Shown here one piece after another: positions 2,827 through 64,000 of a DNA stretch of 64,000 nt. The notes under the pieces are model-generated. The model had not been told where the DNA came from. It searched no databases and was given only the letters and a program-made list of their open reading frames with translations. Origin of the DNA: Escherichia phage BF15. The number at the start of each line of letters is the position of its first letter. Positions within the stretch are counted from its first letter, which is position 1. Location of the stretch: sequence record MW822007.1; one strand, given 5' to 3'. A program made the position numbers and the translations under genes.

Positions 2827-3573
2827 TTATCCTCGGATAAGTTTAAAAATTGAACAATTTAGCGGGTATCCTCTTTTCAGTTTAAGTTTATCAATAAAAG
2901 ACAAGTTTTGATACCGCTCTATACCTTGAATAATTTTATCACACATATCATATTGCATTTCTGCTTCTGACAACTTTTTCACAGTTTTCCAATCCGAGCC
3001 TTTAAGAAGAACGTTCAATTTAACAACTTCAGCGCCTTCTGCTATACGAGAACCATCAATACGAGCTTTGAGTGCTATAATCGTTAGCTTAACGTCAGAA
3101 GTTTGTTTTGATTTAGAAAGCTGAGAAATGTGCTCAATTCGGTTTTCACGTTTTTTCTGTATAGCTTTAATTTGATTATAAGTCTTTTTGATTTTAGCCC
3201 ATTTCTTTTCATCTAAATTTAGTTTATGAACTTTTTTCGCAGATGAACGACCAATTCGCAAAGCAAATAAATCACGCTTTTCAATCAACTCTTCTAAAGT
3301 ATAATCAGAACGAAACGTATTATACTTTTTCTTTACTGCAATAACATTCCCTTTAATGTATCCAACGTTATTATCAAAACGTTCTAACGATAATTTCTCT
3401 CCTTCAATACGATTATCAAAAGGTTCTCCTGAGTAAGCGCAAACTTTCTGATCTAAAATGTTCTTAATGTAATTGAAGTCTAAGTTAAAATCTTTAGAAC
3501 GTCTTTTAGCTGATGCCTGAGTATGCTCTAAACGACGTGTAATTTTACGAATTTGATTTTTAGACAGTTTCAT
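2827..3573 (-). CDS. srd: Srd-like protein
   Basis: 248 aa; position and size match T4 srd; ATG at 3573 preceded by early promoter. Confidence 0.65.
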   Translation of the reverse strand: MKLSKNQIRKITRRLEHTQASAKRRSKDFNLDFNYIKNILDQKVCAYSGEPFDNRIEGEKLSLERFDNNVGYIKGNVIAVKKKYNTFRSDYTLEELIEKRDLFALRIGRSSAKKVHKLNLDEKKWAKIKKTYNQIKAIQKKRENRIEHISQLSKSKQTSDVKLTIIALKARIDGSRIAEGAEVVKLNVLLKGSDWKTVKKLSEAEMQYDMCDKIIQGIERYQNLSFIDKLKLKRGYPLNCSIFKLIRG

Positions 3574-3602
3574 ATTTTTCTCACGGACGGTTAACTACTT
3601 AT

Positions 3603-3632
3603 ACTATAACATTTTTACTTTAACTTGTAAAC
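3603..3632 (-). promoter_or_regulatory. T4-type early promoter (upstream of srd)
   Basis: minus strand GTTTAC-N18-TATAGT. Confidence 0.6.
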
Positions 3633-3688
3633 AACTTTATGAAAAATGCTTTAAAACTTTCATGGTATAATGAATCTAAGTCCTTCCA

Positions 3689-4291
3689 TTATAGATTAAA
3701 TCCTTCAAAATCAAGAGTATAGATAGTGTATGTTGAATACTTTTTATACTCGTATCTATCCGCAATTCTAAATACACTTCCAGCTGGTATCATTACTTCT
3801 TGTTCATCTGAAACTAATTCCATATTACGATAGCGATGGCTATCCGGAAACTTAAAACTTGGACTATATTCTTTACAACGTAGAGCTTTTATAGCATACT
3901 CCTGGAAATTAAATACCATAGGAGCTTTGAATTCAAAAATAACTTGTGTATTGTATTCTAATCCAGAAGCAAAATGTAGAGCTATATTTTTATCATATGA
4001 AGCTGATACTACTTTATCAAATGTAATAATATCAATTCCTTGATTTAACACTTGTTTAGTCTCAACTGGAACACCTCTCCAAAGAGGTTTATCGTTTGGA
4101 ACCAAACGAGATTTGATTATTTCATTTAACCAAGAATGATCGTCTGGCTTATTAGTAATACAATGAATTAAAAGTTCAATTTCGGATAAATTAAATCCTT
4201 CAGAAAGTAATTCTTCACGAATAGAAGCACGCACCGATGCATCCATTGATTTGATTTTAAAATCTTTTAATTGCATTGCTGAATATTTCAT
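3689..4291 (-). CDS. modA: ModA ADP-ribosyltransferase
   Basis: 200 aa, size and position as T4 ModA; paralog of the adjacent ORF. Confidence 0.75.
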   Translation of the reverse strand: MKYSAMQLKDFKIKSMDASVRASIREELLSEGFNLSEIELLIHCITNKPDDHSWLNEIIKSRLVPNDKPLWRGVPVETKQVLNQGIDIITFDKVVSASYDKNIALHFASGLEYNTQVIFEFKAPMVFNFQEYAIKALRCKEYSPSFKFPDSHRYRNMELVSDEQEVMIPAGSVFRIADRYEYKKYSTYTIYTLDFEGFNL

Positions 4292-4911
4292 TCAACTACC
4301 TCAATATCATACACTTTAAATGTTCCAAATGAATCGTGTAATTTTTCTTTTGAAATAGAAGTTATTTTATACTTTCCAATTGGAATCATCCATTCTTGTT
4401 CACGCACAATCATCATTAAGTTATCAGTACGTTCTGAATCTAATCCATCAGTATCTTCATATGTATACTTAAACTCAGTGTTAGGAGAAGAAAGTATAAT
4501 ATCGCTGATATGGTCAGAGTAATTAAAAGCTTTATCAGTTTTTAAGCGAAATATTATTTCAGTGGAATATTCAACATAAGAAAAACCACATGCTGTGTGC
4601 AAACTAGTAGTAAATGAATCTACTCTGTTCGTTGAAAACACTTCTCCAACTTGTAAATCTTTAATGAGTTCTTTTGTCGATTTTGATATACCACGATATA
4701 ACTGATAAGGTGATTCAGTTAAATGCTTTTTAATGATTTTATTCAACTGCCGATGAAGAGCTTCATTCTTTTTGGCTTCCATACATTGCCAAAGAACTGA
4801 CTGTTCAAAGTCAGTAAATTTTTCACAGACCTTTTTATACATATCATATTGAAAATCAACGCTTTCAGCTTTTATAGATAACTGTTCAACATCTGCAAGA
4901 TTAATAATCAT
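4288..4911 (-). CDS. modB: ModB ADP-ribosyltransferase
   Basis: ORF-track start 4923 moved to ATG at 4911 (GGAGG 4-5 nt upstream), giving 207 aa as in T4 ModB. Confidence 0.75.
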   Translation of the reverse strand: MIINLADVEQLSIKAESVDFQYDMYKKVCEKFTDFEQSVLWQCMEAKKNEALHRQLNKIIKKHLTESPYQLYRGISKSTKELIKDLQVGEVFSTNRVDSFTTSLHTACGFSYVEYSTEIIFRLKTDKAFNYSDHISDIILSSPNTEFKYTYEDTDGLDSERTDNLMMIVREQEWMIPIGKYKITSISKEKLHDSFGTFKVYDIEVVE

Positions 4912-4937
4912 GATAGCCTCCATATACTTCAGAAGCT

Positions 4938-4967
4938 ATCATATCATTGTTAGGAAGGAAAGTAAAC
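4938..4967 (-). promoter_or_regulatory. T4-type early promoter (upstream of modB)
   Basis: minus strand GTTTAC-N18-TATGAT. Confidence 0.55.
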
Positions 4968-4978
4968 AACTTTTTGAA

Positions 4979-5161
4979 TTATTTTGCCCAGGGAGCCCAG
5001 GGCGGAGGGTCAAGATGGTATGAAGCTAGTTCTTCTAGAAGAGCATCTGGGGCTTCAATTCCATAATTCTGTAATACTATACGGTACTCTTTCTTATAAT
5101 CACTAGAATCATTCTGGATATTCGTAGAATGATTATCTTCTAACATCTCAAATAAATCCAT
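4979..5161 (-). CDS. hypothetical protein
   Basis: 60 aa ORF; Pro/Trp-rich C-terminus; no family recognised. Confidence 0.4.
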   Translation of the reverse strand: MDLFEMLEDNHSTNIQNDSSDYKKEYRIVLQNYGIEAPDALLEELASYHLDPPPWAPWAK

Positions 5162-6807: not shown

Positions 6808-7013
6808 TACAAAAAGCCTCTCTTGAATTCAACTTGCTTCTCGCCATAATCATATCGAATCTCTGCATTAAATTCGACAGAACCATCTGCGTACATCATA
6901 AATGAATGCACAATAACTTCTGTAGACCATGGCTGTAGTTCATATTTCTTCATTACATGCCGTGAAATGATAATATCTAAATCTTCATTTGGTTTAATCC
7001 AGCGATTTAACAT
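6807..7013 (-). CDS. hypothetical protein
   Basis: 68 aa; ATG at 7013 with GAGGAG SD and early promoter upstream. Confidence 0.45.
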   Translation of the reverse strand: MLNRWIKPNEDLDIIISRHVMKKYELQPWSTEVIVHSFMMYADGSVEFNAEIRYDYGEKQVEFKRGFL

Positions 7014-7039
7014 AGTGCTCTCCTCTATAAGATAATTCT

Positions 7040-7069
7040 ATTATACCATACTCATTTTGGAAAGTAAAC
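7040..7069 (-). promoter_or_regulatory. T4-type early promoter
   Basis: minus strand GTTTAC-N18-TATAAT; next to soc terminator. Confidence 0.6.
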
Positions 7070-7077
7070 CGGTAAAA

Positions 7078-7103
7078 TGAAAAAAGGACTCCCGAAGGAG
7101 TCC
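7078..7103 (-). terminator. intrinsic terminator after soc
   Basis: minus-strand hairpin GGACUCC-UUCG-GGAGUCC followed by U run. Confidence 0.65.
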
Positions 7104-7111
7104 TTGAATTA

Positions 7112-8004: not shown

Positions 8005-9344
<1,340 letters not shown>

Positions 9345-9369
9345 TATATCATCCTCAGCAATTTATTTT

Positions 9370-9399
9370 ATAATACCATAACAAGCTGAGAAAGTAAAC
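9370..9399 (-). promoter_or_regulatory. T4-type early promoter for nuclease-dam operon
   Basis: minus strand GTTTAC-N18-TATTAT, 26 nt upstream of ATG 9344. Confidence 0.55.
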
Positions 9400-9434
9400 A
9401 AATTTATGATAAATATTAATTTAAAGGAGGACAT

Positions 9435-11193: not shown

Positions 11194-11493
11194 CTAATTA
11201 CTCTCACCTACCACTTCAGCGATGATATTTTTATTATTAAAGTTTTTATCGCAATACAGAACATAATTATACTGCATTACACCACCAGACTTAAGCTGTT
11301 TTTGCACTTCAGCTTTCATTTCAGGACGATCACGCTTAACGATATTCATAATATCTGCTTCAATTTGAGTTTCAACCTCAGTCTGATCTGCAGTCATAGA
11401 CCATTCGCACAAATCTTTATCATAACCTGCCATAGCAGGCTGAGCAGCACAAGAAGCTAAAGCAAAAACTGTAGCAAAGATAAATTTTTTCAT
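11194..11493 (-). CDS. sp: Spackle periplasmic protein (superinfection exclusion)
   Basis: 99 aa with signal peptide; matches T4 Sp as recalled. Confidence 0.85.
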   Translation of the reverse strand: MKKFIFATVFALASCAAQPAMAGYDKDLCEWSMTADQTEVETQIEADIMNIVKRDRPEMKAEVQKQLKSGGVMQYNYVLYCDKNFNNKNIIAEVVGESN

Positions 11494-11521
11494 GATAATC
11501 TCCTCAGTAGTTTATGTTTAT

Positions 11522-11551
11522 ATAGTATCTCAATTTCCAATAAAAGTAAAC
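11522..11551 (-). promoter_or_regulatory. T4-type early promoter (upstream of sp)
   Basis: minus strand GTTTAC-N18-TACTAT. Confidence 0.5.
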
Positions 11552-11553
11552 AG

Positions 11554-11853
11554 TTATTTTAAAACTTTTGCATAATCACATGTTACAAACTGTTTCTCTA
11601 ACTTGACGATCTTACGAAAATACCTTTTACACTGACGAATCTGCCTCTTCGTAGGACGTACAGCAAACTTAATAAATTCCACTCGACCAAATGGAGGACT
11701 TTCTTCTGCTGGAATATCTAACACCAATTCCCACGTATCTGCAATAAGTGCTTTGAATTGCGTATTTTTCCTGACGTTATACGGAGTAGGTTTAAATAAA
11801 ACAATATGCATATTATCCTCGGCAATCCACTTCACATACTTTCTTGTCATCAA
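11554..11853 (-). CDS. hypothetical protein (61.4 position)
   Basis: 99 aa ORF. Confidence 0.45.
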   Translation of the reverse strand: MMTRKYVKWIAEDNMHIVLFKPTPYNVRKNTQFKALIADTWELVLDIPAEESPPFGRVEFIKFAVRPTKRQIRQCKRYFRKIVKLEKQFVTCDYAKVLK

Positions 11854-11995
11854 TGAAAGCTTTAACTAATGCTTTATTAACTTCAGCATATTGAGTAGTA
11901 GCCCATTGAACGTCATCTTTCATCATTGTGATTTCTTTAGTAAACATGCTTTCATTCTTAAACCACCCCATAAAAACTACCTTTACCAATTCCAT
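11813..11995 (-). CDS. dmd: Dmd, antitoxin against RnlA/LsoA
   Basis: 60 aa, size and position of T4 Dmd; early promoter at 12025-12054. Confidence 0.8.
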   Translation of the reverse strand: MELVKVVFMGWFKNESMFTKEITMMKDDVQWATTQYAEVNKALVKAFIDDKKVCEVDCRG

Positions 11996-12024
11996 AACAA
12001 TCTCCTCATTTAACCAACAAGACT

Positions 12025-12054
12025 ACTATACCATAGTCTTGTCAGCTTGTAAAC
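12025..12054 (-). promoter_or_regulatory. T4-type early promoter (upstream of dmd)
   Basis: minus strand GTTTAC-N18-TATAGT inside inverted repeat CAAGACT...AGTCTTG. Confidence 0.6.
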
Positions 12055-13481
12055 TAAAATTTTAATTCATTTGCCAAAGCATCTAACTGTGCTCGAGCTG
12101 ATTCGTTTCTTTGATAGCGATTCTGTTCAGCCTGAATCTGTTGTGAACCTGCTACTTCACTCACTTCAGTTGGAGTAGAATCTTGTTCAATTTCTACCCA
12201 TTTTTGATTTCCTTTTTGAACACCCATCAAAAACTTATTCCACTTATTCTTATCACCATATCGTGATTTGATTTGCTTAATGAGTTGTTGTTCAGCAGCT
12301 GCTAGCTCCTCGGTTTCAATGACCGCAAGCATAAAATCGGCTGTTGCTGGAAGACCGGCAGATTCTGCAATATCGCTCATGTTAACATCAGAAGAGTCCC
12401 AAGCTTGTTTACCAACCTGTGCTGCAGTCCAAAGAACAGTTTCGGTTTCAACAGCAAGAGCGCGCAATTCCTCTGCAATAGCTTTAACAGTTGTATAACT
12501 ATTTTCTGAATAAACTCTAATGCGGCAAGATTTACAAATACCTAGATAGTCGACAATAATGATTGTTGGAACAAAATTCTTCTTGAGCTTCAATTCATTC
12601 AAGAGAGACCTGAATGTGTTAGCATCTGCCCCACCAGTAGGATACTGTTTAACGATTAAACGACCAAGAGTAGATTTCTCACGCCATTTTTCCATTTTTC
12701 CTTTATATTCAGCGTAAGAAATATGCCCATCATCAATGTCATCAAGAGAAACATCAAGCATATTAGCATCAATACGCTTAGCACAGACTTCTTCTGCCAT
12801 TTCCATGGAAATGTAAAGAACATTATGTCCGAGCTGCAAATAATCTGCTGCCAATGAACACAATCCTAATGACTTACCAACGTTAACGCCAGCCATTAAA
12901 ACGTTCAGTGTTCCAGTCTCAGCTCCGCCTTTAGTAATTTTGTTTAGAATTCTGAGTTTAAATGGAACCTTACGAGCTTTATTCATATAAGATAGCCAAC
13001 GCGCTTCATAGTCATCCATCCAATCATGACCAACGTAGCTATCAAATGAAATTGATAATGCTTGGCGCATGATGTCAGGAATAGCACCTACATCTGGCAT
13101 TTTCTTATTTCGTTTTTCCGGAGGAAGCTCAGCATTAGTTTGAATTTCGATTATTTTAGACGTAGCATTAAACATCGCCCTTTGCTGAACATATTTTTCT
13201 GTTTCTTTTACTAACCAGCTGTGGTCTTCCGGAGAATCAGCCAGTTTTGAAATAAGTGTTTTTACACCAGAATATTCTGTTTCAGTAAATGAACTATTTT
13301 CTAATGCAACATTTAACGCATTAATAGATGGAACGCTATGGTACTCATTAACATGAGATTTAATTAATTTGAATGTATTTTTAGCTGGACCACTTTCAAA
13401 ATATTCTGAATCCATATATGGCCAAACTTTTGAAAAATAAGCTTGATCAAATATAAGATGAGAAAGAATAATTTCTACCAC
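12054..13481 (-). CDS. 41: replicative DNA helicase gp41
   Basis: 475 aa; DnaB-family motifs; matches T4 gp41. Confidence 0.95.
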   Translation of the reverse strand: MVEIILSHLIFDQAYFSKVWPYMDSEYFESGPAKNTFKLIKSHVNEYHSVPSINALNVALENSSFTETEYSGVKTLISKLADSPEDHSWLVKETEKYVQQRAMFNATSKIIEIQTNAELPPEKRNKKMPDVGAIPDIMRQALSISFDSYVGHDWMDDYEARWLSYMNKARKVPFKLRILNKITKGGAETGTLNVLMAGVNVGKSLGLCSLAADYLQLGHNVLYISMEMAEEVCAKRIDANMLDVSLDDIDDGHISYAEYKGKMEKWREKSTLGRLIVKQYPTGGADANTFRSLLNELKLKKNFVPTIIIVDYLGICKSCRIRVYSENSYTTVKAIAEELRALAVETETVLWTAAQVGKQAWDSSDVNMSDIAESAGLPATADFMLAVIETEELAAAEQQLIKQIKSRYGDKNKWNKFLMGVQKGNQKWVEIEQDSTPTEVSEVAGSQQIQAEQNRYQRNESARAQLDALANELKF

Positions 13482-17710: not shown

Positions 17711-18091
17711 TCACTTAGTCAAATTTTTTACACATGAATTATAAGAATTTACTACATACTCCATCGGAGCATTTTTACCGGTACGCCATTGGTAATTATT
17801 AGCCCAATTAGCCCAAATTTCGGCGCAGTAGTTTTCAATTTTTTCTTCACGTGTAATCACATCTGAATTACGATATGCTTGAGCAGATTCATCTGGACGA
17901 ATAGCTTCGTCAAAATTCGCCTGCATTTGTTCTACTGTCTGTTTTGGAGCTTCTTTATAACACTTAACATTAGGATTATAAAATTTGCTTGAACAGTTTA
18001 CAATTTTTCCTACATCAGATTGATTTACTACCGGTCCTTGAGCTACACAACCAGTAAGACCCAATGCAATAACCAAAATAGCGATTTTCAT
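17711..18091 (-). CDS. predicted lipoprotein
   Basis: ORF-track ORF trimmed to ATG 18091 (GGAG SD); lipobox LTGC; upstream part of track ORF is promoter read-through. Confidence 0.55.
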   Translation of the reverse strand: MKIAILVIALGLTGCVAQGPVVNQSDVGKIVNCSSKFYNPNVKCYKEAPKQTVEQMQANFDEAIRPDESAQAYRNSDVITREEKIENYCAEIWANWANNYQWRTGKNAPMEYVVNSYNSCVKNLTK

Positions 18092-18125
18092 TTCATTCTC
18101 CAAATCCGTATCAGTTGATAGTTGT

Positions 18126-18155
18126 ATAGTACCATGGAAAAACAGGGATGTAAAC
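18126..18155 (-). promoter_or_regulatory. T4-type early promoter (lipoprotein gene)
   Basis: minus strand GTTTAC-N18-TACTAT; member of a conserved promoter-leader repeat family. Confidence 0.6.
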
Positions 18156-18238
18156 CATTTTGTGAAAAAATTTTTAATGAATTCCAGAGGTCGAGAATCA
18201 TCTGTTTTTCCTAAGTATAGATTTATATTACTTGTATG

Positions 18239-18259
18239 AAAAAGGGACCCGGAGGTCCC
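18239..18259 (-). terminator. intrinsic terminator after gene 43
   Basis: hairpin GGGACC-UCCG-GGUCCC plus U run. Confidence 0.6.
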
Positions 18260-18272
18260 TAGATTTATTCTA

Positions 18273-21043: not shown

Positions 21044-21046
21044 TGC

Positions 21047-22988: not shown

Positions 22989-22992
22989 TCTA

Positions 22993-31971: not shown

Positions 31972-32170
31972 GGAGTTTAATTTCCTTAGCAACTGAACTA
32001 AATACAGCACGATCACAAATCATACGTTTGTTCCATTTAATCACAGTATAATGAACATCTAAATCATCGACTGCTGTAACAATAACGATATGTCCGTTAA
32101 CACGATAATACTGATCAATTTTAATCTCTTTATCAACCATATCAATTCCTCAAAGGTAATTCATATGTTA

Positions 32171-32200
32171 ATAATACCACAGTTTGAACTTGTTGTAAAC
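32171..32200 (-). promoter_or_regulatory. T4-type early promoter
   Basis: minus strand GTTTAC-N18-TATTAT; next to terminator 32274-32293. Confidence 0.5.
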
Positions 32201-32273
32201 AACTTTATGAAAATTATTTTAGGGAATGATAAGAAGTGAATGATAGTTAGAATGGTAATATACAGAATGTGAG

Positions 32274-39351: not shown

Positions 39352-40383
39352 TTACTTAATTAACTGTAAAGCTTGTTCCAGACGATCAAGACGATTAACA
39401 GATTCTTCCCAAATCTTTTTAGCCTGCTCATATTCTTTCTGCGCTTTATTAGAAATTTCTAGAACTTCCTTATAAGATTTTTCTAATGCAATAACTTCTG
39501 GACGAATTTCTATCGGTTCAGGTGAATCATCAAGACATTCCATTAGTTCCTCAAGGGTAGTTTCTTCTTTAGGAGTATTCACAATTTCATCACATTTTTG
39601 TTGATAAATTTCTTTATCAGTAGGTGAGTACGCGCACTTTACTTCACGAAGACTAATTACAATTTTATATCCTTCCCAACCGCATATATTCTTAAAAGGA
39701 TATGTATGAATATTTTCTACTGTTTCCATACAAAGTAATGCGGTCTCTAATTGACGAGTTATAGTGCTAGCAATTGAGAAAAATTTATTAATATTCTTTT
39801 GGTTAGTTTCTGGTGTAAAAAATCCATAATTCACAAAAATAGCTACTTTATTTTTATCAAGTTCATATTCTTTTATGATAATCATATCAGAAGCCAAAGG
39901 ATGAATTTGACGATAATCGCCATAACATAATTTAGAAGCTGATTTTAGAATTTGCTTCTTAAAAAGTCTGAAATTACTAATCCAACGACGAGTAAAAATA
40001 TTCTCAGGGTCTTCTTTGACATTAAGATGATAAGAATTAACATCACCGAACCAATTATATCCTACTACATCTTTGGTTCGTTTAATTTCTTTCCCAAAAT
40101 TACCAAGAATATCCCGATTAACCAAATATGAAAGAAGACGAGACTCTTTAAAGGTTTTCTTGATAACATCTTTATCTACACGGCTAGAAATTTTACGAAT
40201 TTCATGAATAAATTTAGTAGAAGAAACAATACTTGCATCAACACTATTGAGCCATTGATTGATAATAGAAAGAACACTATTTTGGCCAAACATCGGTATA
40301 GCTTTATCATCAATAACGCTATTGAATGATTTGATATATTCGTTACGAGTCATATTAATCTCCTCAGTAGAAAGTAAGAACAT
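39352..40383 (-). CDS. hypothetical protein, paralog family member B
   Basis: 343 aa; shares ...FRLFKKQILKSASKL-type block with C and D; coiled-coil tail. Confidence 0.5.
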   Translation of the reverse strand: MFLLSTEEINMTRNEYIKSFNSVIDDKAIPMFGQNSVLSIINQWLNSVDASIVSSTKFIHEIRKISSRVDKDVIKKTFKESRLLSYLVNRDILGNFGKEIKRTKDVVGYNWFGDVNSYHLNVKEDPENIFTRRWISNFRLFKKQILKSASKLCYGDYRQIHPLASDMIIIKEYELDKNKVAIFVNYGFFTPETNQKNINKFFSIASTITRQLETALLCMETVENIHTYPFKNICGWEGYKIVISLREVKCAYSPTDKEIYQQKCDEIVNTPKEETTLEELMECLDDSPEPIEIRPEVIALEKSYKEVLEISNKAQKEYEQAKKIWEESVNRLDRLEQALQLIK

Positions 40384-40410
40384 TATACCACATCCTTGTG
40401 ACGAAGTAAA

Positions 40411-41439
40411 CTAGTTTAGTGCATTTAGTGCATTGTTCAGTTTAGAACGTTGCTTTGTCAGATTTTGAACCCTTGACTGAGCTTGTTCTAACGCCTTTTC
40501 AGCTTCTAGCACTTCATTGGTCGCTTTAACGAGTTCATCATCTACTGCCTTAAGGGACTTCTCAATCGCATCCGCGTGCCATTTTTCAACAGGTTTAAGA
40601 CTCGGATTTTCAATAGGAAGAAAATTCACTTTATTGAATTTCCATGCATCCTTATTACCTGAACTATACATCCAAAATTTAGGATCGTTTGATAAGTAAT
40701 TGGATAAATTTAAATTTAAGTTATCTTGTACTTCTTGCTTTTTCTCTTGTGTAACTTCGTCCTTTCTCAAAAAATCATATTTAAATGAAACGATCATATC
40801 AAGTTCATATGATGTTGTATCTAACTTAAATCGTTCAAAACGAGGTAAAATCTTAGATTGAACAGCAGCAACAACATCCATATACTTAAATGCTTCTGTT
40901 AGCTGTGACTTAAGACATTCACAAATTGAAAGAGAATTTTTTGTATTAGGTTTAAAGCTAATTCGTGCAGTTCTATTATTTTCTTTTAACGGTCTTACTT
41001 CCATCTGAAGAGTATAACCATCAAATTTCAGATTCTTTAAGTTAATATCAGAACCTTTTAATCGACTAGCAGTAGACAAAATTTGCTTTAATTGTCTACG
41101 GAACAGAGCAATAAATCTCCATTCAATACGATAATGATTTGGATTGAAAAATCCAGATGATAAATCGACCTTACTTTGACCAACGCCTTGAACAAATAGA
41201 GGATTTTTATAATCAATAGTTTTACAGAAATCGGTGAGCTGTTCACGAGCAGTCATTTGAGTAATATACCCTGCTTTACTAAAATTACGCACCCATTCAC
41301 TGCTATTCGTATACTTAAAGTGATGAATAACACGATTAACTTTATCGGGGTCTAAATTATTTTCACACAAAAATGTCATAACATCACGAGTATAGCTGGC
41401 ATTACGAACCATATCTTCAATTTGAGAACGAGTTTTCAT
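40411..41439 (-). CDS. hypothetical protein, paralog family member C
   Basis: 342 aa; block ...FRRQLKQILSTASRL; coiled-coil tail. Confidence 0.5.
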   Translation of the reverse strand: MKTRSQIEDMVRNASYTRDVMTFLCENNLDPDKVNRVIHHFKYTNSSEWVRNFSKAGYITQMTAREQLTDFCKTIDYKNPLFVQGVGQSKVDLSSGFFNPNHYRIEWRFIALFRRQLKQILSTASRLKGSDINLKNLKFDGYTLQMEVRPLKENNRTARISFKPNTKNSLSICECLKSQLTEAFKYMDVVAAVQSKILPRFERFKLDTTSYELDMIVSFKYDFLRKDEVTQEKKQEVQDNLNLNLSNYLSNDPKFWMYSSGNKDAWKFNKVNFLPIENPSLKPVEKWHADAIEKSLKAVDDELVKATNEVLEAEKALEQAQSRVQNLTKQRSKLNNALNALN

Positions 41440-42802: not shown

Positions 42803-43330
42803 TTATGCGAGTACCGTCTTTAACCGTTCTTCAAACTTCCGAAGAGTATTTTGGCGTTCAGCTCTTTGCTTTTTGTAAGTTTCAATACGCTCTGAAATGA
42901 GAGTGTATCGTTCATTTACTGATTCTTTCATAAAATCAGGAATTTCACGAGAAGCTTTAATCTCGTCAAATTTATCAATAACAGCTTGCTCTTCAGCAAT
43001 TAAGTTATCATACATCAAAATATCTTTCTTGATGAACTCAATATCTTCTTGAGTTACACGAGATAATTTAGATGCTTTATCCTTTTTGTACTGTTCATTA
43101 GTATCACGAGACCAGTGTAATGTACGATTTTTATTCGTATTTTTGTAAATTTCTACAATACCAATCTCATCGATAATAACGATCCAATTCCAACGAGATT
43201 TGTAAATTTGCCCTCCGTCAACCGTGATTTCACCTCCGATTGAGATGTCATTAAAGAACTTGCTTTGCGCTTCAGATTTAAATTTACCATCATTGTAATT
43301 TACCAAGTTGAAAATATCTTTAGCGTTCAT
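42803..43330 (-). CDS. hypothetical protein
   Basis: track ORF trimmed to ATG 43330 (MNAKDIF...) with GGAGG SD; track N-terminus is promoter read-through. Confidence 0.45.
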   Translation of the reverse strand: MNAKDIFNLVNYNDGKFKSEAQSKFFNDISIGGEITVDGGQIYKSRWNWIVIIDEIGIVEIYKNTNKNRTLHWSRDTNEQYKKDKASKLSRVTQEDIEFIKKDILMYDNLIAEEQAVIDKFDEIKASREIPDFMKESVNERYTLISERIETYKKQRAERQNTLRKFEERLKTVLA

Positions 43331-43358
43331 TTTGTGTTCCTCCGTAGTTGATAGTTGT

Positions 43359-43388
43359 ATAGTACCACAGAGGAACGGTCTTGTAAAC
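43359..43388 (-). promoter_or_regulatory. T4-type early promoter
   Basis: minus strand GTTTAC-N18-TACTAT; conserved promoter-leader repeat. Confidence 0.55.
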
Positions 43389-43390
43389 AA

Positions 43391-43705
43391 CTAAAAGAAA
43401 CTTCTTTCACAATTTTTTCCACTGAACCAAGCGCTCACTGCTTTCTTAGTCTCAGGAGCAGTATTATCCATAAACCATTCAAAAGCAGCCTTTTTATGAT
43501 TCTGGAGGGCTTCTCGGGCTTTAATCTGCTCACGGTCTATTAACACTAACATATGAGCCTTTCTTGTCACCATGGGCTTCTTATGATTTTTTGAATACTC
43601 CCAATCATTTGTCCATCGCATCGTTGTTGCGAATTGAAGTACAGCTTCTTTAATTTTAGTTTCGTAAATTTCACGAGCCTTTGAGTATAACATCACTACC
43701 TCCAT
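43391..43705 (-). CDS. hypothetical protein
   Basis: 104 aa ORF; 3' end runs into promoter region. Confidence 0.4.
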   Translation of the reverse strand: MEVVMLYSKAREIYETKIKEAVLQFATTMRWTNDWEYSKNHKKPMVTRKAHMLVLIDREQIKAREALQNHKKAAFEWFMDNTAPETKKAVSAWFSGKNCERSFF

Positions 43706-44495: not shown

Positions 44496-45460
44496 TTTAA
44501 CAATACCGTTTCAGCGATTTCTTCCCAATAGTTTTTGTCGGTCATAATAAAGTCAGCAAGATAAAGAGCAGTACGCAGTGAAACATTACGTAAACGGTTA
44601 ACATTGACTTTCATCCATGATAATGCTTTATAAGTTTCTTCATCAGAAAGACCGCGTTTTTGCATCATGTCAGTTGAAAGAATAACATCTTCAACCCTGA
44701 CCATAATTTCTTCATTAGTGTGAACACCCAAATCTAAATAAACTGAGCGGGACACTAATGCTTGTAAATGTGGAGCAAGTTTAGTACCACGGTCTAATTC
44801 GCGGTCAATATCAACGTTTGTGATAAAAACAATCGTTCCTTTAAATTCAAACTCACGGTCAATGCCTTTTTCTTCTAAGTAAGAAGATGCAGTGCTCCAG
44901 CAGACTTTACGGGTCTCTCCAGTGTCCAGAGCAGCTTTCAGAAGATTAAGAATGTCCATATCAGAGAAAACATCCACATCATCAATCAAAAGGACAGAAT
45001 TCTCTTCACGATTATTCCAAAGCTGCTCATAAAGACCGATACCAGAGATTTTACCATTAATGCTTTTATATTCAATGTATCCAATATCATTTGCTTTATT
45101 TAAAGCTTTATCTAAAGAATACGTTTTACCAATACCCGCCGCACCAGAGATAATTAATGAACGAATATTTCCATTAATAATACCATTCGTCATCATTCCC
45201 ATAACATTAAATCTTTTATTAATGCGGGTTTTCATATCTTCATATGATTCTTTAACTTCTTCAACTTTTACACCATCATATGAAATATCTGATTTGTAAA
45301 CCCAAACACCGCGACGTTTACCGTCAATTTCAACAAAAACTTTACCATCTCCTTGTGCATCTACCGGAGCATTATCTGGGAACCATTCGCCTAAGAGCTC
45401 AAAAGTTCCAGAGATTTCTTTACCGAAGTAGATACCCTTATTGATAGTTACAGTTTTCAT
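44492..45460 (-). CDS. P-loop ATPase (AAA-like)
   Basis: track ORF trimmed to ATG 45460 (MKTVTINKG...) with GGAG SD; Walker A GAAGIGKT, Walker B LLIDDVD. Confidence 0.55.
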   Translation of the reverse strand: MKTVTINKGIYFGKEISGTFELLGEWFPDNAPVDAQGDGKVFVEIDGKRRGVWVYKSDISYDGVKVEEVKESYEDMKTRINKRFNVMGMMTNGIINGNIRSLIISGAAGIGKTYSLDKALNKANDIGYIEYKSINGKISGIGLYEQLWNNREENSVLLIDDVDVFSDMDILNLLKAALDTGETRKVCWSTASSYLEEKGIDREFEFKGTIVFITNVDIDRELDRGTKLAPHLQALVSRSVYLDLGVHTNEEIMVRVEDVILSTDMMQKRGLSDEETYKALSWMKVNVNRLRNVSLRTALYLADFIMTDKNYWEEIAETVLLK

Positions 45461-45497
45461 TTTATTCTCCAAATCCGTATCAGTAGTTGATAGTTGT

Positions 45498-45527
45498 ATA
45501 GTACCATAAAGCTTTATGCTTGTAAAC
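45498..45527 (-). promoter_or_regulatory. T4-type early promoter (ATPase gene)
   Basis: minus strand GTTTAC-N18-TACTAT; leader near-identical to copy at 18092-18155. Confidence 0.6.
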
Positions 45528-45552
45528 CGTTCTGTGAAAAAATTTTTGAAAT

Positions 45553-45576
45553 AAAAAAGGGAGCCCGAAGGCTCCC
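45553..45576 (-). terminator. intrinsic terminator after nucleotidyltransferase-like gene
   Basis: GGGAGCC-UUCG-GGCUCCC hairpin plus U run. Confidence 0.65.
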
Positions 45577-45578
45577 TA

Positions 45579-48138: not shown

Positions 48139-48273
48139 AATTACATACTCCTTTGAATAATATCAATAATGTTGTTCACCAGATTATAAGTAAACATTGG
48201 GTAATTATATTGAATCATCACATACACAACAAACAAAACTTTCATTCTCTTCTCCTTGGCAGTTGACAAGATT

Positions 48274-48303
48274 ACTATACCATAACCTTGCCAACTTGTA
48301 AAC
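48274..48303 (-). promoter_or_regulatory. T4-type early promoter
   Basis: minus strand GTTTAC-N18-TATAGT flanked by inverted repeat TTGGCA...TGCCAA. Confidence 0.5.
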
Positions 48304-48468
48304 CATTAAATGACGTTTTCAATAAAATTCTGAAGCTTTGTGTGAGCATCAACCATGATTTTCATTTCTTCCTTTGCGAAAGCTGTACCTCTTTCCCGAG
48401 AAGAACACTCATAGTCAGAAACTGCATTAGCATATTCTTCAATTAGCTTCATTAAAAACATCTGCTTT

Positions 48469-48905: not shown

Positions 48906-49057
48906 GCCATATGAGTTGCAGCTTCATCACACATATCATAACGTTTCTTAAGAAGTTCTACAAGTTCTTCACTAGTAACTTCATCCATGTCGACGAAAAA
49001 ATCACCATTAATGATGACGTAGATATTTCCTTCTTGATTAAGCGCTTCAATTTTCAT
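48869..49057 (-). CDS. hypothetical protein
   Basis: track ORF trimmed to ATG 49057 with GAGGAG SD. Confidence 0.35.
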
Positions 49058-49085
49058 GATGTTCTCCTCTTTATCCGATGGTTGT

Positions 49086-49115
49086 ATAGTATCACAGCTC
49101 AAATGGAAAGTAAAC
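49086..49115 (-). promoter_or_regulatory. T4-type early promoter
   Basis: minus strand GTTTAC-N18-TACTAT; next to terminator 49125-49148. Confidence 0.55.
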
Positions 49116-49124
49116 CGGTAAAAT

Positions 49125-49148
49125 GAAAAAAGTCTCCCGAAGGAGACT
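49125..49148 (-). terminator. intrinsic terminator after rI.-1
   Basis: AGUCUCC-UUCG-GGAGACU hairpin plus U run. Confidence 0.65.
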
Positions 49149-52612: not shown

Positions 52613-53074
52613 TCATTGAGTTTTAATTACTGCTTTAGAAGCCTTTCCTGGTAAACGACGACTGTTAATAATTGCCATCCTGCATTGAAGCGACGGGTCT
52701 TTGAACTTCGCATTAGGTTTACAAACTGTAAATCCAAGCCAAAGATTTCCATCTGTGATTTCTAAACGTCCAGGACGATATTCAACCCCATCAATAAAAT
52801 CCTCGTCAATGTCAGGACGCGGAGGCATACTCAGGAATTCATTAACTTCTAAAACATGGTCTTTTATTTTATGGAATAATTCAAAAACGTATGTCTCATC
52901 AATCTCCCGTTGAATTGCGCGATCAAGAAGATGTTGAGAATATTTTAGATGAAACGATGAGACCCCTGCTGCTTTTGATGCCTCACGAATCTCATTGTTA
53001 ATTTGACGAAACTCCGACTCAAAGTGACGACGAAGCTTATTTCGACGGATAAAAACTTCTGTGTTGATAGTCAT
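52613..53074 (-). CDS. regB: RegB endoribonuclease
   Basis: 153 aa; matches T4 RegB; early promoter at 53102-53131. Confidence 0.9.
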   Translation of the reverse strand: MTINTEVFIRRNKLRRHFESEFRQINNEIREASKAAGVSSFHLKYSQHLLDRAIQREIDETYVFELFHKIKDHVLEVNEFLSMPPRPDIDEDFIDGVEYRPGRLEITDGNLWLGFTVCKPNAKFKDPSLQCRMAIINSRRLPGKASKAVIKTQ

Positions 53075-53101
53075 GTTATTCTCCTCTTAACTGATAGAAA
53101 A

Positions 53102-53131
53102 ATTATACCACAGTCAAGAGGAAAAGTAAAC
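53102..53131 (-). promoter_or_regulatory. T4-type early promoter (regB)
   Basis: minus strand GTTTAC-N18-TATAAT, 28 nt upstream of regB ATG. Confidence 0.65.
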
Positions 53132-53133
53132 AG

Positions 53134-53454
53134 TTATTCTTTAAATCTAATCAATTTATTCATAGACTTTGAAACTTCTGCACGAACCTCATGTAGATTT
53201 TTGAGCTGTTCAAGACGCTGCGTATAGTAAGCAATTTCATCTTCTTCGAGACAGTCCTGTGAATCTTCTTTAAGATAACGTGCATAGTCCTGAAAAGCGT
53301 TACGAACTACTTCCTGGAAGTCATCAAGACTTTGAATTTTCTTAGGAGCAGCAGATACACGACGAGGGGCAGTATAATACTCATAACCAAACCCTGCGCT
53401 TAATTGAGCCATTAGTATTTTTCCTCTGGTTGGAACACTGCACGACAAGCCCAC
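53134..53454 (-). CDS. hypothetical protein (vs.3 position)
   Basis: 106 aa ORF. Confidence 0.4.
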
Positions 53455-55127: not shown

Positions 55128-55208
55128 TTAGTTTCTCTTTTAGGTTGGGCCATTCCGTGGCGCATGAATTGTCCATTTCTGTATTTACCCCTCCAAGTAA
55201 TTATGAAT

Positions 55209-55238
55209 ATACTATCACAATTCTAGGAGAAAGTAAAC
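55209..55238 (-). promoter_or_regulatory. T4-type early promoter (P-loop gene)
   Basis: minus strand GTTTAC with TAGTAT-like -10. Confidence 0.45.
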
Positions 55239-55240
55239 TG

Positions 55241-55543
55241 TTATTTACCTTTAATTACTTTAGCTGCTTCGATAGCCGCTTGCTGAAGGTCATCCATAGA
55301 CATACCGAATTTAGAAGCAAAGTTATCAATTTTCTTTTCGACAGCATTCAAAGGCTTGGCCTGTTTACCTTCATTAGCGCCAGGAAGAGCGAGAATACGC
55401 TCTTTGTCAATATAAAGGCTTACAAGTTTCTTACGGTCTTTATCGGACAAATCATGAAATGAATGGGCCTTTTTATTTATAGCGGCTTCTAATTTACCTG
55501 CACTCACTCGCGCTTCAGTAATAAATTCTTGATATGTTTTCAT
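55241..55543 (-). CDS. ipII: internal protein IPII
   Basis: 100 aa; capsid-targeting leader MKTYQEFITEA; size as T4 IPII. Confidence 0.75.
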   Translation of the reverse strand: MKTYQEFITEARVSAGKLEAAINKKAHSFHDLSDKDRKKLVSLYIDKERILALPGANEGKQAKPLNAVEKKIDNFASKFGMSMDDLQQAAIEAAKVIKGK

Positions 55544-55584
55544 ATGTTTCCTTTAAATGTAAATAGGTCTGAGTATTATCTTTA

Positions 55585-56163
55585 TTAGGAATTACGGGCT
55601 GCATTAGCAACGGCGTAAGCGTACTGGACATTAGCGTCTTTAAACGTACCTTTAGAGGTATCTATTTCTGCCTTAAAGCCGCCTTTAGCCATAACATCGG
55701 CAAATTCTTTACGGAAAGCCATTGCATCAAGACCTTTCCATGATGATTTATGCTTGGCAAATTCAAGACCAGCGTAGTTGACAGCCTTAGCTAATTTATT
55801 ATCAATAACCCATTTACCGGCTTTAGGCACAAACTTCGGGCCTTTTTGTTTAGAGAACAGTTTTAAATTCCAGCGACGAAGGTCACTGTCGGCTTTAACA
55901 AAAGCTGCGTCTAAGTTACTAGCAACAACATCTTCAATATGAGCAAATTTAAGTCCGTCAACTTCAATATTTAGATCGTTACGCCAGCGAAGTCCTTCCC
56001 AAGCGAAGGCTTTAAAGTCGGAAGCCTTTGTAGCTAAGTACCGTTCAATAGGAGCTGTTTTAGGGTCAAAGCCGTTTCCCGATCGGTAGGTCCACTCATC
56101 TTTATTAATGCCTTTGGCCTTTACTATAGAAGCTTCGGCAATAAATTCTTGATAGGTTTTCAT
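55585..56163 (-). CDS. ipIII: internal protein IPIII
   Basis: 192 aa; leader MKTYQEFIAEA; size as T4 IPIII. Confidence 0.75.
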   Translation of the reverse strand: MKTYQEFIAEASIVKAKGINKDEWTYRSGNGFDPKTAPIERYLATKASDFKAFAWEGLRWRNDLNIEVDGLKFAHIEDVVASNLDAAFVKADSDLRRWNLKLFSKQKGPKFVPKAGKWVIDNKLAKAVNYAGLEFAKHKSSWKGLDAMAFRKEFADVMAKGGFKAEIDTSKGTFKDANVQYAYAVANAARNS

Positions 56164-56224
56164 GTGTTTCCTTGTTTGTTTTGATAGAGTAATTATACCA
56201 TATTAATACTTAAGCGTAAACCGT

Positions 56225-56485
56225 TTAAGCTTTACCGCCAGAAATAATTCCGAAGTTGTTAAAATCATATCCAATATCGTCAACATCTACTTTAGGACTT
56301 GCTACAACATAAGCAATTTCACTACGTTTTGCACAGGTGTTGATTTCTTTACCATCGCCACCTAAGAAAGAATACCCATTACGTTTTAATGAGCCAAAGT
56401 CTTCCGCATCACCAATGAAAGCTTTAACTTTAAATTTAGAACCTTTGGCATCTGCTTCAACGATAAATTCTTGATACATTTTCAT
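56225..56485 (-). CDS. additional internal-protein-like ORF
   Basis: 86 aa; leader MKMYQEFIVEA; own early promoter at 56623-56652. Confidence 0.55.
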   Translation of the reverse strand: MKMYQEFIVEADAKGSKFKVKAFIGDAEDFGSLKRNGYSFLGGDGKEINTCAKRSEIAYVVASPKVDVDDIGYDFNNFGIISGGKA

Positions 56486-56622
56486 TTTTCCTTAGTAAAT
56501 TGATTTACCAAAGTATTTGTACCAAGTCGGACGTTGATCAATTTTTTCATCTAAGCGTGCTTGATTTATCGCAATGGACGCTTCGGACGGGTCATAATTT
56601 CCTCCAAGTAGTTGATGAATGT

Positions 56623-56652
56623 ATAGTATCAAAACCCTTGGAGGAAGTAAAC
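56623..56652 (-). promoter_or_regulatory. T4-type early promoter (extra ip-like gene)
   Basis: minus strand GTTTAC-N18-TACTAT. Confidence 0.55.
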
Positions 56653-56654
56653 AA

Positions 56655-57895
<1,241 letters not shown>

Positions 57896-59735: not shown

Positions 59736-60329
59736 TTATTTCAGAGAATTGATGTATTCCTGAACATCGGCAGAGGTAGTTTCAACCCCGGAAATATTAC
59801 CGTTAAAGGTTTCAACTCGAGCAAGAGTATCTTCAATATCAACCTTAGTTAGCGCTGCGATTTCAACTACATCATCAGCAGTACTAATTCCAAGGGCATT
59901 TGCCGCACGAGTTTCACGGATATATTCCAATTTAACTGCAAGTTCTTGGCGAGCATCATCTAACTCAACTACTTTCTTGGCGATTTCAATTCGCATTTCA
60001 GCATAACCATCAGCTTTAGTAGTCAACTGCTCAGCTGTTCGACGATATAGTAAACCGAGTTTAGCATGCATTGTTACATCTTGACCTTCGGAAAGAAGTC
60101 TGCGAATTTCACGCTCTTTTGATTCGGCTTGTCGATTCTTTTCGATAACAAGTTCACGAATACGTTTTTCTTCATTAATAGATTTAACAGAAGCAGTTTT
60201 TAGGTCTTTAATTTTATCAAGTAATTTTGCTGCTGCAGCAGTATACTGTTCTTCAACAGATAAATTTTTAGCCATAGCAGAACCAAGTTTAGTGCGAATA
60301 AACTCAACAATTTTCTTCAGTGTGTTCAT
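59736..60329 (-). CDS. hypothetical alpha-helical protein
   Basis: 197 aa; long predicted helices; terminator downstream. Confidence 0.45.
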
Positions 60330-60385
60330 AGTATTTCCTTAGGTTGATACAATTAGATAATATCACGTTTTAATAAATTGTAAAC

Positions 60386-60721
60386 TTATTCTTCGTCTAG
60401 CTCATCGATAAAGACGTCAATGGCCTCGATAACGGCATCATTGATAGCCAATAAAGTAAAATCATCGTCAGTGTCTTTAGAAGATTCTAAAGCATTGATA
60501 TATGCTTTGTTAGCAAGTTCCCAAGCCTTTTTAAAATAAGGAGCTTCATCATCAGGGCCAACGAAACGTACACCTTCAAAGATACGGTTAGCATAATCCA
60601 ATACCCACTGTACAGGCATGCTTTGAGAACGTTCGTTAAACTCTTTAAATTCCTTAGATTCAAAAAGCTCTTCGGGATAATAATTTCGATTACAAAAAGC
60701 TTTACTAAAGTTACGTTTCAT
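60386..60721 (-). CDS. hypothetical protein (e.x)
   Basis: 111 aa acidic ORF. Confidence 0.4.
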   Translation of the reverse strand: MKRNFSKAFCNRNYYPEELFESKEFKEFNERSQSMPVQWVLDYANRIFEGVRFVGPDDEAPYFKKAWELANKAYINALESSKDTDDDFTLLAINDAVIEAIDVFIDELDEE

Positions 60722-60776
60722 AATGTTCTCCTCAAATTATGGGCTCATAATATCTCAATCATGAGCCCATGTAAAC

Positions 60777-61052
60777 TTATTTCATATTATTGAAATATTC
60801 TTCTGCGATTTCGTCGTTATCGTGGTAAACTTTAGAAGACAGTTTAACATAACCTTCAGCAGTGAACATGTTAATCACAACCTTTACAGTATACCACTGA
60901 CCATCTTCATTACCCATTACTGCGTAAGTTTCAAACATCGGATGGTCAGGACCGATAACTTTAATATCATTCACCGTACGACCGAAATCTTCTGAAACAC
61001 ATTTCAGAAAGAAGTTGAACAGTTCGCCGTAATTATCCATTTCGTTCTCCAA
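60777..61052 (-). CDS. hypothetical protein (e.x)
   Basis: track start is TTG; internal ATG at 61040; early promoter upstream. Confidence 0.4.
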   Translation of the reverse strand: MENEMDNYGELFNFFLKCVSEDFGRTVNDIKVIGPDHPMFETYAVMGNEDGQWYTVKVVINMFTAEGYVKLSSKVYHDNDEIAEEYFNNMK

Positions 61053-61083
61053 GTTGTTTTCTGTATCAGTAGTTGATATTGAT

Positions 61084-61113
61084 ATAGTACCATGGAAGAA
61101 CAGGGATGTAAAC
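61084..61113 (-). promoter_or_regulatory. T4-type early promoter
   Basis: minus strand GTTTAC-N18-TACTAT; conserved promoter-leader repeat. Confidence 0.55.
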
Positions 61114-61247
61114 CATTTTGTGAAAAAATTTTTTTAAAAGTTTTAGGGAATTCTAGGGCAGGGAGGGGCAATTAAAGGATAGGATAATATATTATAAAGG
61201 GTAGAAACTAAATGATGCCTAGAGAGGTCCAAAAAGGCCTAGATACT

Positions 61248-61274
61248 AAAAAGCCCCAACCTTTCGGCTGGGGC
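61248..61274 (-). terminator. terminator at end of tRNA/stable-RNA operon
   Basis: GCCCC...GGGGC hairpin plus U run just downstream of stable-RNA region. Confidence 0.55.
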
Positions 61275-63908: not shown

Positions 63909-63936
63909 TTTATTCTCCTCAGTAGTTGATAGGGTA

Positions 63937-63966
63937 ATAGTATCACTACCCTATCTAAAAGTAAAC
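63937..63966 (-). promoter_or_regulatory. T4-type early promoter
   Basis: minus strand GTTTAC-N18-TACTAT. Confidence 0.5.
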
Positions 63967-64000
63967 TGTTTTTATAAACTATTTTATTCCGCGTGATGCA

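Follow-up and report, generated by a model that had tools for sequence, protein, structure and literature searches.

The early promoters (Pe) of bacteriophage T4 carry GTTTAC at −36 to −31 and an A-rich stretch at −40 to −44 (Nolan et al. 2006), and have been described as 'uber' promoters in which UP, −35, TGn and −10 elements are joined by additional conserved regions (Hinton 2010). Early translation-initiation regions of T4 contain a strong consensus for cleavage by RegB with ribosomal protein S1, GG↓AGRAYARAA, and the GGAG of regB itself is cut, as set out in a review of T4 post-transcriptional control (Uzan and Miller 2010). A composite of hairpin, A/T tract, early promoter, Shine–Dalgarno sequence (SD) and ATG was named PeSL and assigned a role in the insertion and deletion of cassettes, with mini-circles demonstrated experimentally in RB49/phi1 (Arbiol et al. 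2010). The PeSL model was then extended to T4/PST with the consensus TTTACW-N17-TAYWAT, and its authors recall the same pattern at the internal-protein locus from Repoila et al. 1994 (Comeau, Arbiol and Krisch 2014). The idea that promoter and stem-loop cassettes act as shuffling sites in T4-type phages, which a first-pass annotation of the DNA studied here had cited as a proposal, is therefore in print, for T4/PST itself as well. The Pe class, GGAG leaders of the RegB type, UUCG hairpins and PeSL shuffling are all known already, and the phage described here fits that picture.

We analyzed a window of 64,000 nucleotides from Escherichia phage BF15 (MW822007.1), which belongs to Tequatrovirus, the T4-like coliphages, and has many isolates ~95–97% identical to it. 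The window is equivalent to T4 coordinates ~8.2–73.6 kb and carries its genes on the minus strand. Around the promoter unit of imm.1, a 5-kb segment is 96–98% identical to hundreds of genomes of Tequatrovirus coliphages and Shigella phages, and the 40–64 kb part is matched by the same group in 7–12 mosaic pieces.

Predicted early promoters of the BF15 window

At each of six sites where the first-pass annotation had pointed to a recurring promoter and leader, the minus strand carries a perfect GTTTAC-N18-TACTAT (Table 1), and a repeat search recovers the same copies independently as families D1, D2, D5 and D12, which bears out the recurrence. Around this core the likeness to T4 Pe promoters is close. 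GTTTAC occupies −36 to −31 and the hexamer TTTACn stands 17 bp from the −10 in six of six copies and in all ~21 units of the wider set described below; the −10 is extended by TGn, as aTGgTACTAT or gTGaTACTAT in all six and as TaTGgTAttAT in the consensus of 20 units; and an A/T-rich UP region lies between −40 and −60, for example AAAAATTTTTTCACAAAA in the 18155, 45527 and 61113 units (imm.1, nrdC.10 and e.8), and is visible as A-rich columns upstream of GTTTAC in the 20-unit consensus, a.AaA.t.GTTTACtt..[spacer]..TaTGgTAttATa.a..tATcaacTa..gaggagaa. Start-site conservation, early-gene location and genomic positions are likewise shared with T4, and nothing substantive differs beyond small patchy changes in the spacer and UP tract.

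Sequences that precede orthologous genes in T4, RB32 and W143 can be aligned base for base with all six units. In T4 the genes behind them are, in order, imm.1, nrdC.8, nrdC.10, mobD.5, e.8 and trna.4, with the units at T4 positions ~27080, 53943, 55384, ~58.8 kb, 70696 and 73572, and the orientation of each BF15 unit is that of its downstream minus-strand early-gene orthologue. In Yersinia phage fPS-2 the orthologue of the imm.1 site is annotated as a 'predicted early promoter' and is preceded by a 'terminator' after gene 43. The T4 Pe signature, T4 orthology and the fPS-2 annotation uphold the reading of these sites as promoter plus leader, and the six units belong to the T4 early-promoter class, with promoter activity predicted from homology and consensus.

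The family is larger than the six sites first listed. GTTTAC-N18-TAYTAT with at most one mismatch has 22 matches in the window against 1.26 expected, a number reached in none of 100 shuffles, and 21 of the 22 lie on the minus, gene-bearing strand. A looser listing gives ~21 well-formed Pe-type units, each with a purine-rich SD and an ATG 25–43 nt past the −10. The first-pass annotation was correct for its six sites and fell short of the total, overlooking even TACTAT copies at 11522-11551 and 56623-56652; its unit length of ~60 bp does not hold, as the closest copies span 90–115 nt.

Table 1. Pe units and neighboring features of the BF15 window (window coordinates; the core is GTTTAC-N18-TACTAT).
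Feature	Strand	Span	Core	−35	−10	ATG	Further elements
imm.1 Pe unit	−	18089..18180	18126-18155	GTTTAC 18150-18155	TGn + TACTAT 18126-18131	18089-18091	UP-like 18156-18180; leader and GGAGAATGAAA before ATG
nrdC.8 Pe unit	−	43328..43413	43359-43388	43383-43388	43359-43364	43328-43330	
nrdC.10 full PeSL	−	45458..45577	45498-45527	45522-45527	45498-45503	45458-45460	UUCG hairpin-terminator 45558-45577, then UP tract; perfect RegB/S1 motif GGAGAATAAAA in leader, 45460-45470
mobD.5 PeSL	−	49055..49148	49086-49115	49110-49115	49086-49091	49055-49057	UUCG hairpin-terminator 49131-49148
e.8 Pe unit	−	61038..61138	61084-61113	61108-61113	61084-61089	61038-61040	
trna.4 Pe unit	−	63906..63991	63937-63966	63961-63966	63937-63942	63906-63908	GGAGAATAAAA in leader, 63908-63918
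mrh.2 PeSL	−	7011..7105		7064-7069	TATAAT		UUCG hairpin 7084-7105; absent from first-pass annotation
sp (spackle) Pe unit	−	11491..11576			TACTAT		
Pe unit with leader fused to truncated denV	−	56593..56677			TACTAT		
regB Pe unit	−	53072..53156					GGAGAATAACA, then ATG; T4 annotation
Two Pe units bracketing e.7-position ORF	−	60327..60801		60385 and 60776			
Internal-protein locus, Pe units at 55238 and 56221	−	55174..56246					
Pe units at 3632 (srd position) and 4967 (modB position)	−	3571..4992					
Pe unit at 9399	−	9342..9424					heads ORF 8784-9344
Pe unit at 12054	−	11993..12079			TATAGT		repeat family D7
Pe unit at 32200 (55.6 position)	−	32138..32225					
Pe unit at 40411 (nrdC.4 position)	−	40351..40436					
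Pe unit at 48303 (mobD.2 position)	−	48243..48328					GGAGAAGAGAA before ATG; repeat family D7
Gene 43, DNA polymerase	−	18273-20969					
imm.1	−	17711-18091					downstream of gene 43
imm, 42.1, gene 42, segD-like endonuclease	−						downstream of gene 43
Hairpin AGGGACC-UCCG-GGUCCCU + U run	−	18243..18260					terminator after gene 43; 88 nt upstream of imm.1 −35
GAAA-loop hairpin + U run	−	61254..61273					~140 nt upstream of e.8 −35

Hairpins and leaders

Hairpins capped by a C(UUCG)G tetraloop reportedly occur in intercistronic regions of T4. The mRNA strand of the BF15 window contains ten GC-rich UUCG-capped stems, and the opposite strand has none. The stems at 7084-7105, 45558-45577 and 49131-49148 have U tails and lie directly upstream of a Pe, 15–31 nt from its −35 (31 nt for 45558-45577 and 16 nt for 49131-49148), and the 7069, 45527 and 49115 units (mrh.2, nrdC.10 and mobD.5) are complete composites of the PeSL type. 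The other seven, in a departure from this arrangement, do not adjoin an early promoter, so hairpin and promoter are separable elements. The trna.4 unit is cut by the window end, and an upstream hairpin can be assessed at the other five listed copies. UUCG stem-loops had been placed beside several of the six: two have one (nrdC.10 and mobD.5), the hairpin upstream of imm.1 has a UCCG loop and that upstream of e.8 a GAAA loop, and the nrdC.8 unit has no adjoining hairpin. The BF15 units resemble PeSLs in their sigma-70-like early promoter, A/T tract, and SD and start codon at the 3′ end, and in the fit of TTTACW-N17-TAYWAT to six of six copies; individual examples also stand beside insertions, deletions and replacements between close relatives. 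They differ in that a hairpin stands against the promoter in just three of the ~21 units, while elsewhere it is 90–140 nt off or missing, and in that junctions show no excess at the units over other intergenic DNA among the five genomes compared.

The leader string given in the first-pass annotation as conserved matches exactly at 45464-45496 and nowhere else, and the likeness declines stepwise among the remaining copies: the 18155 leader lacks 3 nt (ACT), the 61113 leader differs in the middle, the 43388 and 63966 leaders have in common with it only ACAACTATCAACTAC.. followed by GGAG, and the 49115 leader only ACAACCATC. Folding of six leaders gave minimum free energies of 0 to −2.1 kcal/mol with z of 0.1 to 1.4, no better than shuffles. 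A scan of the whole window at the Rfam gathering thresholds returned eight tRNAs as its sole matches and nothing at the Pe units.

The SD region contains GGAG in 15 of the 20 leaders scored. GGAGRAYARAA with 0–1 mismatch and an intact GGAG occurs on the minus strand at 18091, 45460, 48245, 53074 (regB), 61040 and 63908, and all six matches lie directly 5′ of the ATG of a Pe unit. The leaders concerned (18155, 45527, 48303, 53131 of regB, 61113 and 63966) are, on this motif, likely counterparts of the T4 RegB/S1 sites; other BF15 Pe leaders differ in having GGAA or GGAT, or a GGAG in poorer context. The long motif has 13 matches window-wide against 11.3 expected and is not enriched, so its placement alone is informative. 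Because SD and motif matches stand before the ATG, we infer that the 3′ half of the quoted leader is the SD together with a putative RegB context.

Likeness among the units and gene-content junctions

We compared the units pairwise over 76 columns against a null in which each alignment column was shuffled among 20 units, keeping the consensus, in 2000 trials. The maximum pairwise identity under this null is 0.61 ± 0.02, with a largest value of 0.71. The e.8 and imm.1 units reach 0.83, e.8 and nrdC.10 as well as nrdC.10 and imm.1 reach 0.71, and mobD.5 and mrh.2 reach 0.66; the remaining pairs, including those with 63966 and most with 43388, fall within the null. The e.8 and imm.1 units, 43 kb apart, are 94% identical over 63 nt, and the mobD.5 and mrh.2 units have a perfect 29-nt repeat (D20) in common. 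A repeat family that goes beyond promoter consensus is thus found for imm.1, nrdC.10 and e.8 and for mrh.2 and mobD.5, but not for the other copies. Units whose −10 reads TACTAT tend to have an AACT-type leader (7/8 versus 1/13, Fisher p = 0.0005), which points to a cassette sub-lineage.

The 116-nt imm.1 cassette occurs in 644 places in 396 phage records, at 1–3 per genome. A pattern scan of IMG/VR gave 3 window matches and 15 loci. In IMG/VR contigs and ime09, the same promoter stands before e.8, imm.1, nrdC.10 and an extra ORF upstream of nrdC.10, and also before an extra lipoprotein-like ORF and a gene beside denB. Variants are shared across loci as well: in BF15 the imm.1 tract TGGTTTACATCCCTG equals the e.8 tract, while 5 of 15 positions differ from the imm.1 of T4, RB32 and W143. 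Variants at −42 to −37 are common to mrh.2 and mobD.5. These few short tracts are thin evidence, and suggest that patchy exchange may take place between paralogous promoter copies; matrices of gapless 70-nt identity between paralogues and orthologues lack the resolution to reveal concerted evolution, with the signal limited to short tracts.

Chained blastn alignments of the window with T4, RB32, W143, NIC06P2 and BCH953P4 place a gene-content junction in or beside up to five of the six listed units in at least one of the five relatives, and some junctions map to the nucleotide within promoter or leader. No junction falls at the 43388 and 49115 units among these five genomes. The spacer of the 63966 unit marks a switch from T4 ipI to an Ip7-type gene. 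The nrdC.10 unit has three different structures among relatives. In W143, a cassette of Pe, ORF and hairpin separates the UUCG hairpin from the UP tract; in NIC06P2, two ORFs and a second Pe are inserted within the leader, between CAACTATCAA and TTGGAGAATAAAATG; and BCH953P4 has a 275-nt insert at that same point of the leader. In NIC06P2 an additional ORF separates the imm.1 leader from imm.1, and in RB32 an IP-like ORF is inserted upstream of e.8 with the GAAA hairpin duplicated on both flanks, a duplication that the RB32 record annotates as a '34 bp imperfect direct repeat'.

Junctions are also found at units outside the original six. Between the 60385 and 60776 units, RB32, W143, NIC06P2 and BCH953P4 have a different ORF at the e.7 position, and the switches lie at 60348 and 60725-60777. 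Junctions at the 55238 and 56221 units fall in the −10 or leader (55184-55208 and 56173-56185). At the 9399 unit the junction with T4, RB32, W143 and NIC06P2 lies in the UP region (9408-9424), and the ORF behind this unit has no counterpart in T4. In W143 the sp unit is preceded, immediately upstream of its −35, by 329 additional nt, and further junctions are found at 11561-11588 and 56587.

Against a uniform null, Pe units appear strongly favored, with 10 of 56 unique ends in the 4% of sequence that they occupy (p = 6e-5). Whole-gene insertions and deletions must end between genes, so we replaced this null by an intergenic one, using a crude gene model with 124 genes; of its 47 gaps of 40 nt or longer, 17 hold a Pe. 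The five relatives give 30 intergenic ends, of which Pe gaps received 12 where 36% was expected (p = 0.40), and a breakpoint is present in 10 of the 17 gaps with a Pe and in 14 of the 30 without (Fisher p = 0.55); with three genomes the enrichment over the intergenic null was also non-significant. Some 85% of unique breakpoint ends fall outside Pe units, and many junctions belong to homing-endonuclease genes (segF, segD, mobB, the mobC position, I-TevII, the mobD position and a seg-like gene at 43779-44513). The claim that the repeat marks module boundaries therefore keeps its nucleotide-level examples and loses its statistical side: Pe units serve as junctions, and a preference for them over other intergenic DNA is not supported by the five-genome sample.

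Proposed mechanism, rival explanations and significance

We consider it very probable that an early transcription unit of the T4 type begins at each of these sites and that a subset also act as crossover points for ORF cassettes. The UP-like tract at about −60 to −38, GTTTAC, TGn and a TAYWAT −10 would together make a very strong sigma-70 promoter, which host RNA polymerase would use immediately after infection, with the A of ATCAAC, ~7 nt past the −10, as the predicted first transcribed nucleotide. The resulting 5′ leader of 22–37 nt would be unstructured and would present a GGAG SD in a GGAGRAYARAA-like context that the phage RegB endoribonuclease and S1 may recognize and presumably cleave; since the SD lies inside the RegB recognition site, the same short sequence would drive early-gene translation and allow its later inactivation. 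G+C-rich tetraloop hairpins with U runs upstream of several units would end the preceding transcript. In most copies the likeness would reflect a shared functional consensus, and in the imm.1, nrdC.10 and e.8 sub-lineage, along with loci in other genomes, 90–115 nt would be shared by descent or patchy exchange. Such patches of homology could provide the crossover points at which ORFs are inserted, deleted or swapped among Tequatrovirus, probably through recombination.

Functional constraint from RNA polymerase, the UP element, Alt, the ribosome and RegB might by itself account for the units, which would then have no special part in shuffling, an account that we find possible but doubtful. It sits well with most pairwise identities, which fit the consensus-only null, and with the breakpoint data, since indels end in intergenic DNA, more than a third of which consists of Pe units, Pe gaps show no excess over other gaps of at least 40 nt, and the ends outside Pe include many homing-endonuclease insertions. 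It does not sit well with the match of non-consensus spacer positions between e.8 and imm.1, with the variants that cross loci at imm.1/e.8 and mrh.2/mobD.5, with one promoter fused to different leaders and genes at junctions that coincide with the predicted start site or SD, or with the mini-circles of RB49/phi1. That repeated units bound ORF cassettes, and that Arbiol et al. speculate on a helper protein, could instead mean that a site-specific recombinase moves a dedicated integron-like or MITE-like mobile element, with the units as its ends or attachment sites. This is very improbable, given that the units have no terminal inverted repeats or target-site duplications, that crossovers are scattered over UP tract, spacer, leader, start codon and hairpin as in homology-driven exchange, and that no integrase-like gene lies beside them, the endonucleases of the region being free-standing homing enzymes located elsewhere. 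Small ORFs that bring their own promoter and terminator, such as the W143 cassette upstream of nrdC.10, do recall lambdoid morons and integron cassettes; however, moron junctions lie at random sites and those of the BF15 type in repeated regulatory sequence, and integron attC sites are cut by an integrase whereas no recombinase gene is associated with Pe units.

Two further readings concern what lies past the −10. Conservation does run beyond it into transcribed sequence, which speaks for a regulatory RNA with structure, such as a riboswitch, attenuator or sRNA, but we hold this to be extremely unlikely: the leaders fold like their shuffles, Rfam detects tRNAs alone, and the conserved part coincides with the SD/RegB motif and the start-site region. 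Three ORFs, moreover, stay open through the unit and read through the promoter, as ..HGTIQLSTDTDLENE-MKIAIL (ORF 17711-18280), ..YGTIQLSTTDTDLENK-MKTVTI and ..CGTIQLSTTEEHK-MNAKD, and if these stretches were genuinely coding, the longer proteins would share an N-terminal peptide GTIQLST... We give this next to no credence, because such an extension would cross −35, −10 and SD, the frame is open in just 3 of ~21 units, and the 'peptide' varies among orthologues by 3-nt indels and substitutions. In the relatives T4, RB32 and vB_SsoM_113 the annotated start is the ATG next to the SD, and the imm.1 product read from that ATG is a full-length match to the DUF5481 profile. The first-pass annotation was therefore right to call these N-termini spurious; mechanical ORF calls begin at whichever of ATG, GTG or TTG comes first behind a stop codon.

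Within the preferred reading of units as early promoters with occasional crossovers, the sub-lineage of 90–115 nt at imm.1, nrdC.10, e.8 and the ORF upstream of nrdC.10, and at denB-ndd in other isolates, invites a more specific and tentative idea: ongoing ectopic gene conversion among its members, and a preferred 'landing pad' for ORFs between a resident promoter and its SD. This idea derives from the derived variants that paralogues share in one genome and from the three structures of the nrdC.10 unit among six genomes, a limited set.

Together, these data re-confirm in BF15 the known regulation of T4, with Pe promoters predicted to be strong, leaders whose GGAG could be attacked by RegB, and terminators capped by tetraloops. 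Recognition of the units delimits the early transcription units of BF15 and fixes the true starts of imm.1, nrdC.8 and nrdC.10, to which ORF calling adds 20–63 residues through the promoter. The link between Pe units and junctions is no stronger here than for other intergenic DNA, so the PeSL shuffling model needs a test against a genome-wide null, and BF15 contributes a handful of cases in which cassette junctions are placed within promoters at nucleotide level. If the landing-pad reading is true, it would amount to promoter-targeted, recombinase-free gene capture, a process more specific than general homologous recombination.

Promoter repeats and UUCG hairpins

A search of the window for repeated sequence identified a perfect 29-nt direct repeat at 7058-7086 and 49104-49132 (TGGAAAGTAAACCGGTAAAATGAAAAAAG, plus-strand reading) that covers the -35 and UP region in two promoters separated by 42 kb, those of mrh.2 and mobD.5. 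The orthologues of these two promoters in the relatives T4, RB32 and W143 vary at positions -42 to -37, with variants common to both loci. GC-rich, UUCG-capped hairpins occur ten times on the mRNA (minus) strand of the window and never on the plus strand; seven of the ten adjoin no early promoter and sit between replication genes.

UUCG hairpins and internal-protein locus genes in the window
Feature	Position	Strand	N-terminus
UUCG hairpin	7084-7105	minus	
UUCG hairpin	13771-13790	minus	
UUCG hairpin	21029-21044	minus	
UUCG hairpin	22972-22993	minus	
UUCG hairpin	27683-27702	minus	
UUCG hairpin	28953-28972	minus	
UUCG hairpin	31324-31339	minus	
UUCG hairpin	45558-45577	minus	
UUCG hairpin	49131-49148	minus	
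UUCG hairpin	59715-59730	minus	
Internal-protein gene	55241-55543	minus	MKTYQEFI-type
Internal-protein gene	55585-56163	minus	MKTYQEFI-type
Internal-protein gene	56225-56485	minus	MKTYQEFI-type
Internal-protein gene	56655-56936	minus	MKTYQEFI-type

Gene content behind early promoters

From its sequence, the endonuclease V gene denV (56495-56652, minus strand) appears to be a pseudogene. The leader of Pe56652, an early promoter unit with its -35 at 56652 and a TACTAT -10, is fused, together with ATGAC, straight onto denV at about codon 105, and the ORF starting at that ATG encodes only nine residues (MTRPKRPLR, then stop). The fusion point carries a short ATTAT microhomology. The C-terminal 42 residues of denV are kept in a different frame with 74% identity to T4 denV, and W143 carries an intact denV downstream of the same promoter.

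In the Tequatrovirus NIC06P2, two additional small ORFs of 49 and 87 aa lie downstream of the nrdC.10 promoter, and the imm.1 promoter is followed by an ORF of 78 aa (MKIVMGCLAV...), of secreted or lipoprotein-like type, that is found too in several IMG/VR contigs. At 8784-9424 (minus strand) an early promoter heads a 186-aa ORF that is missing in T4 (junction 8871/9408), and the larger segment 7984-9424 that includes both is without counterpart in RB32, W143 and NIC06P2.

The internal-protein locus (55241-56951, minus strand) comprises four genes with a common N-terminal capsid-targeting sequence, which gives rise to repeat family D3. The conserved 5' ends of these genes are sites of junctions relative to the relatives.

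Homing endonucleases and gene-content junctions

Between nrdG and nrdD, a 228-aa ORF (33406-34092, minus strand) occupies the position of T4 mobC and has no counterpart in RB32, W143, NIC06P2 or BCH953P4. Its internal repeats of about 51 nt (families D9 and D15) encode KLAMQKPEV-type motifs, a 41-nt direct repeat (33377-33417 and 34207-34247, 78%) flanks it, and it shows a weak I-HmuI NUMOD-like match under the Pfam cutoff. Judged by sequence, this ORF is probably a free-standing homing endonuclease.

Close relatives differ in whether they carry the segD-like (15926-16567) and seg-like (43779-44513) homing-endonuclease genes. A large part of the region's gene-content junctions is explained by these two genes and by segF, mobB, I-TevII and mobD, homing-endonuclease genes that are T4-specific.
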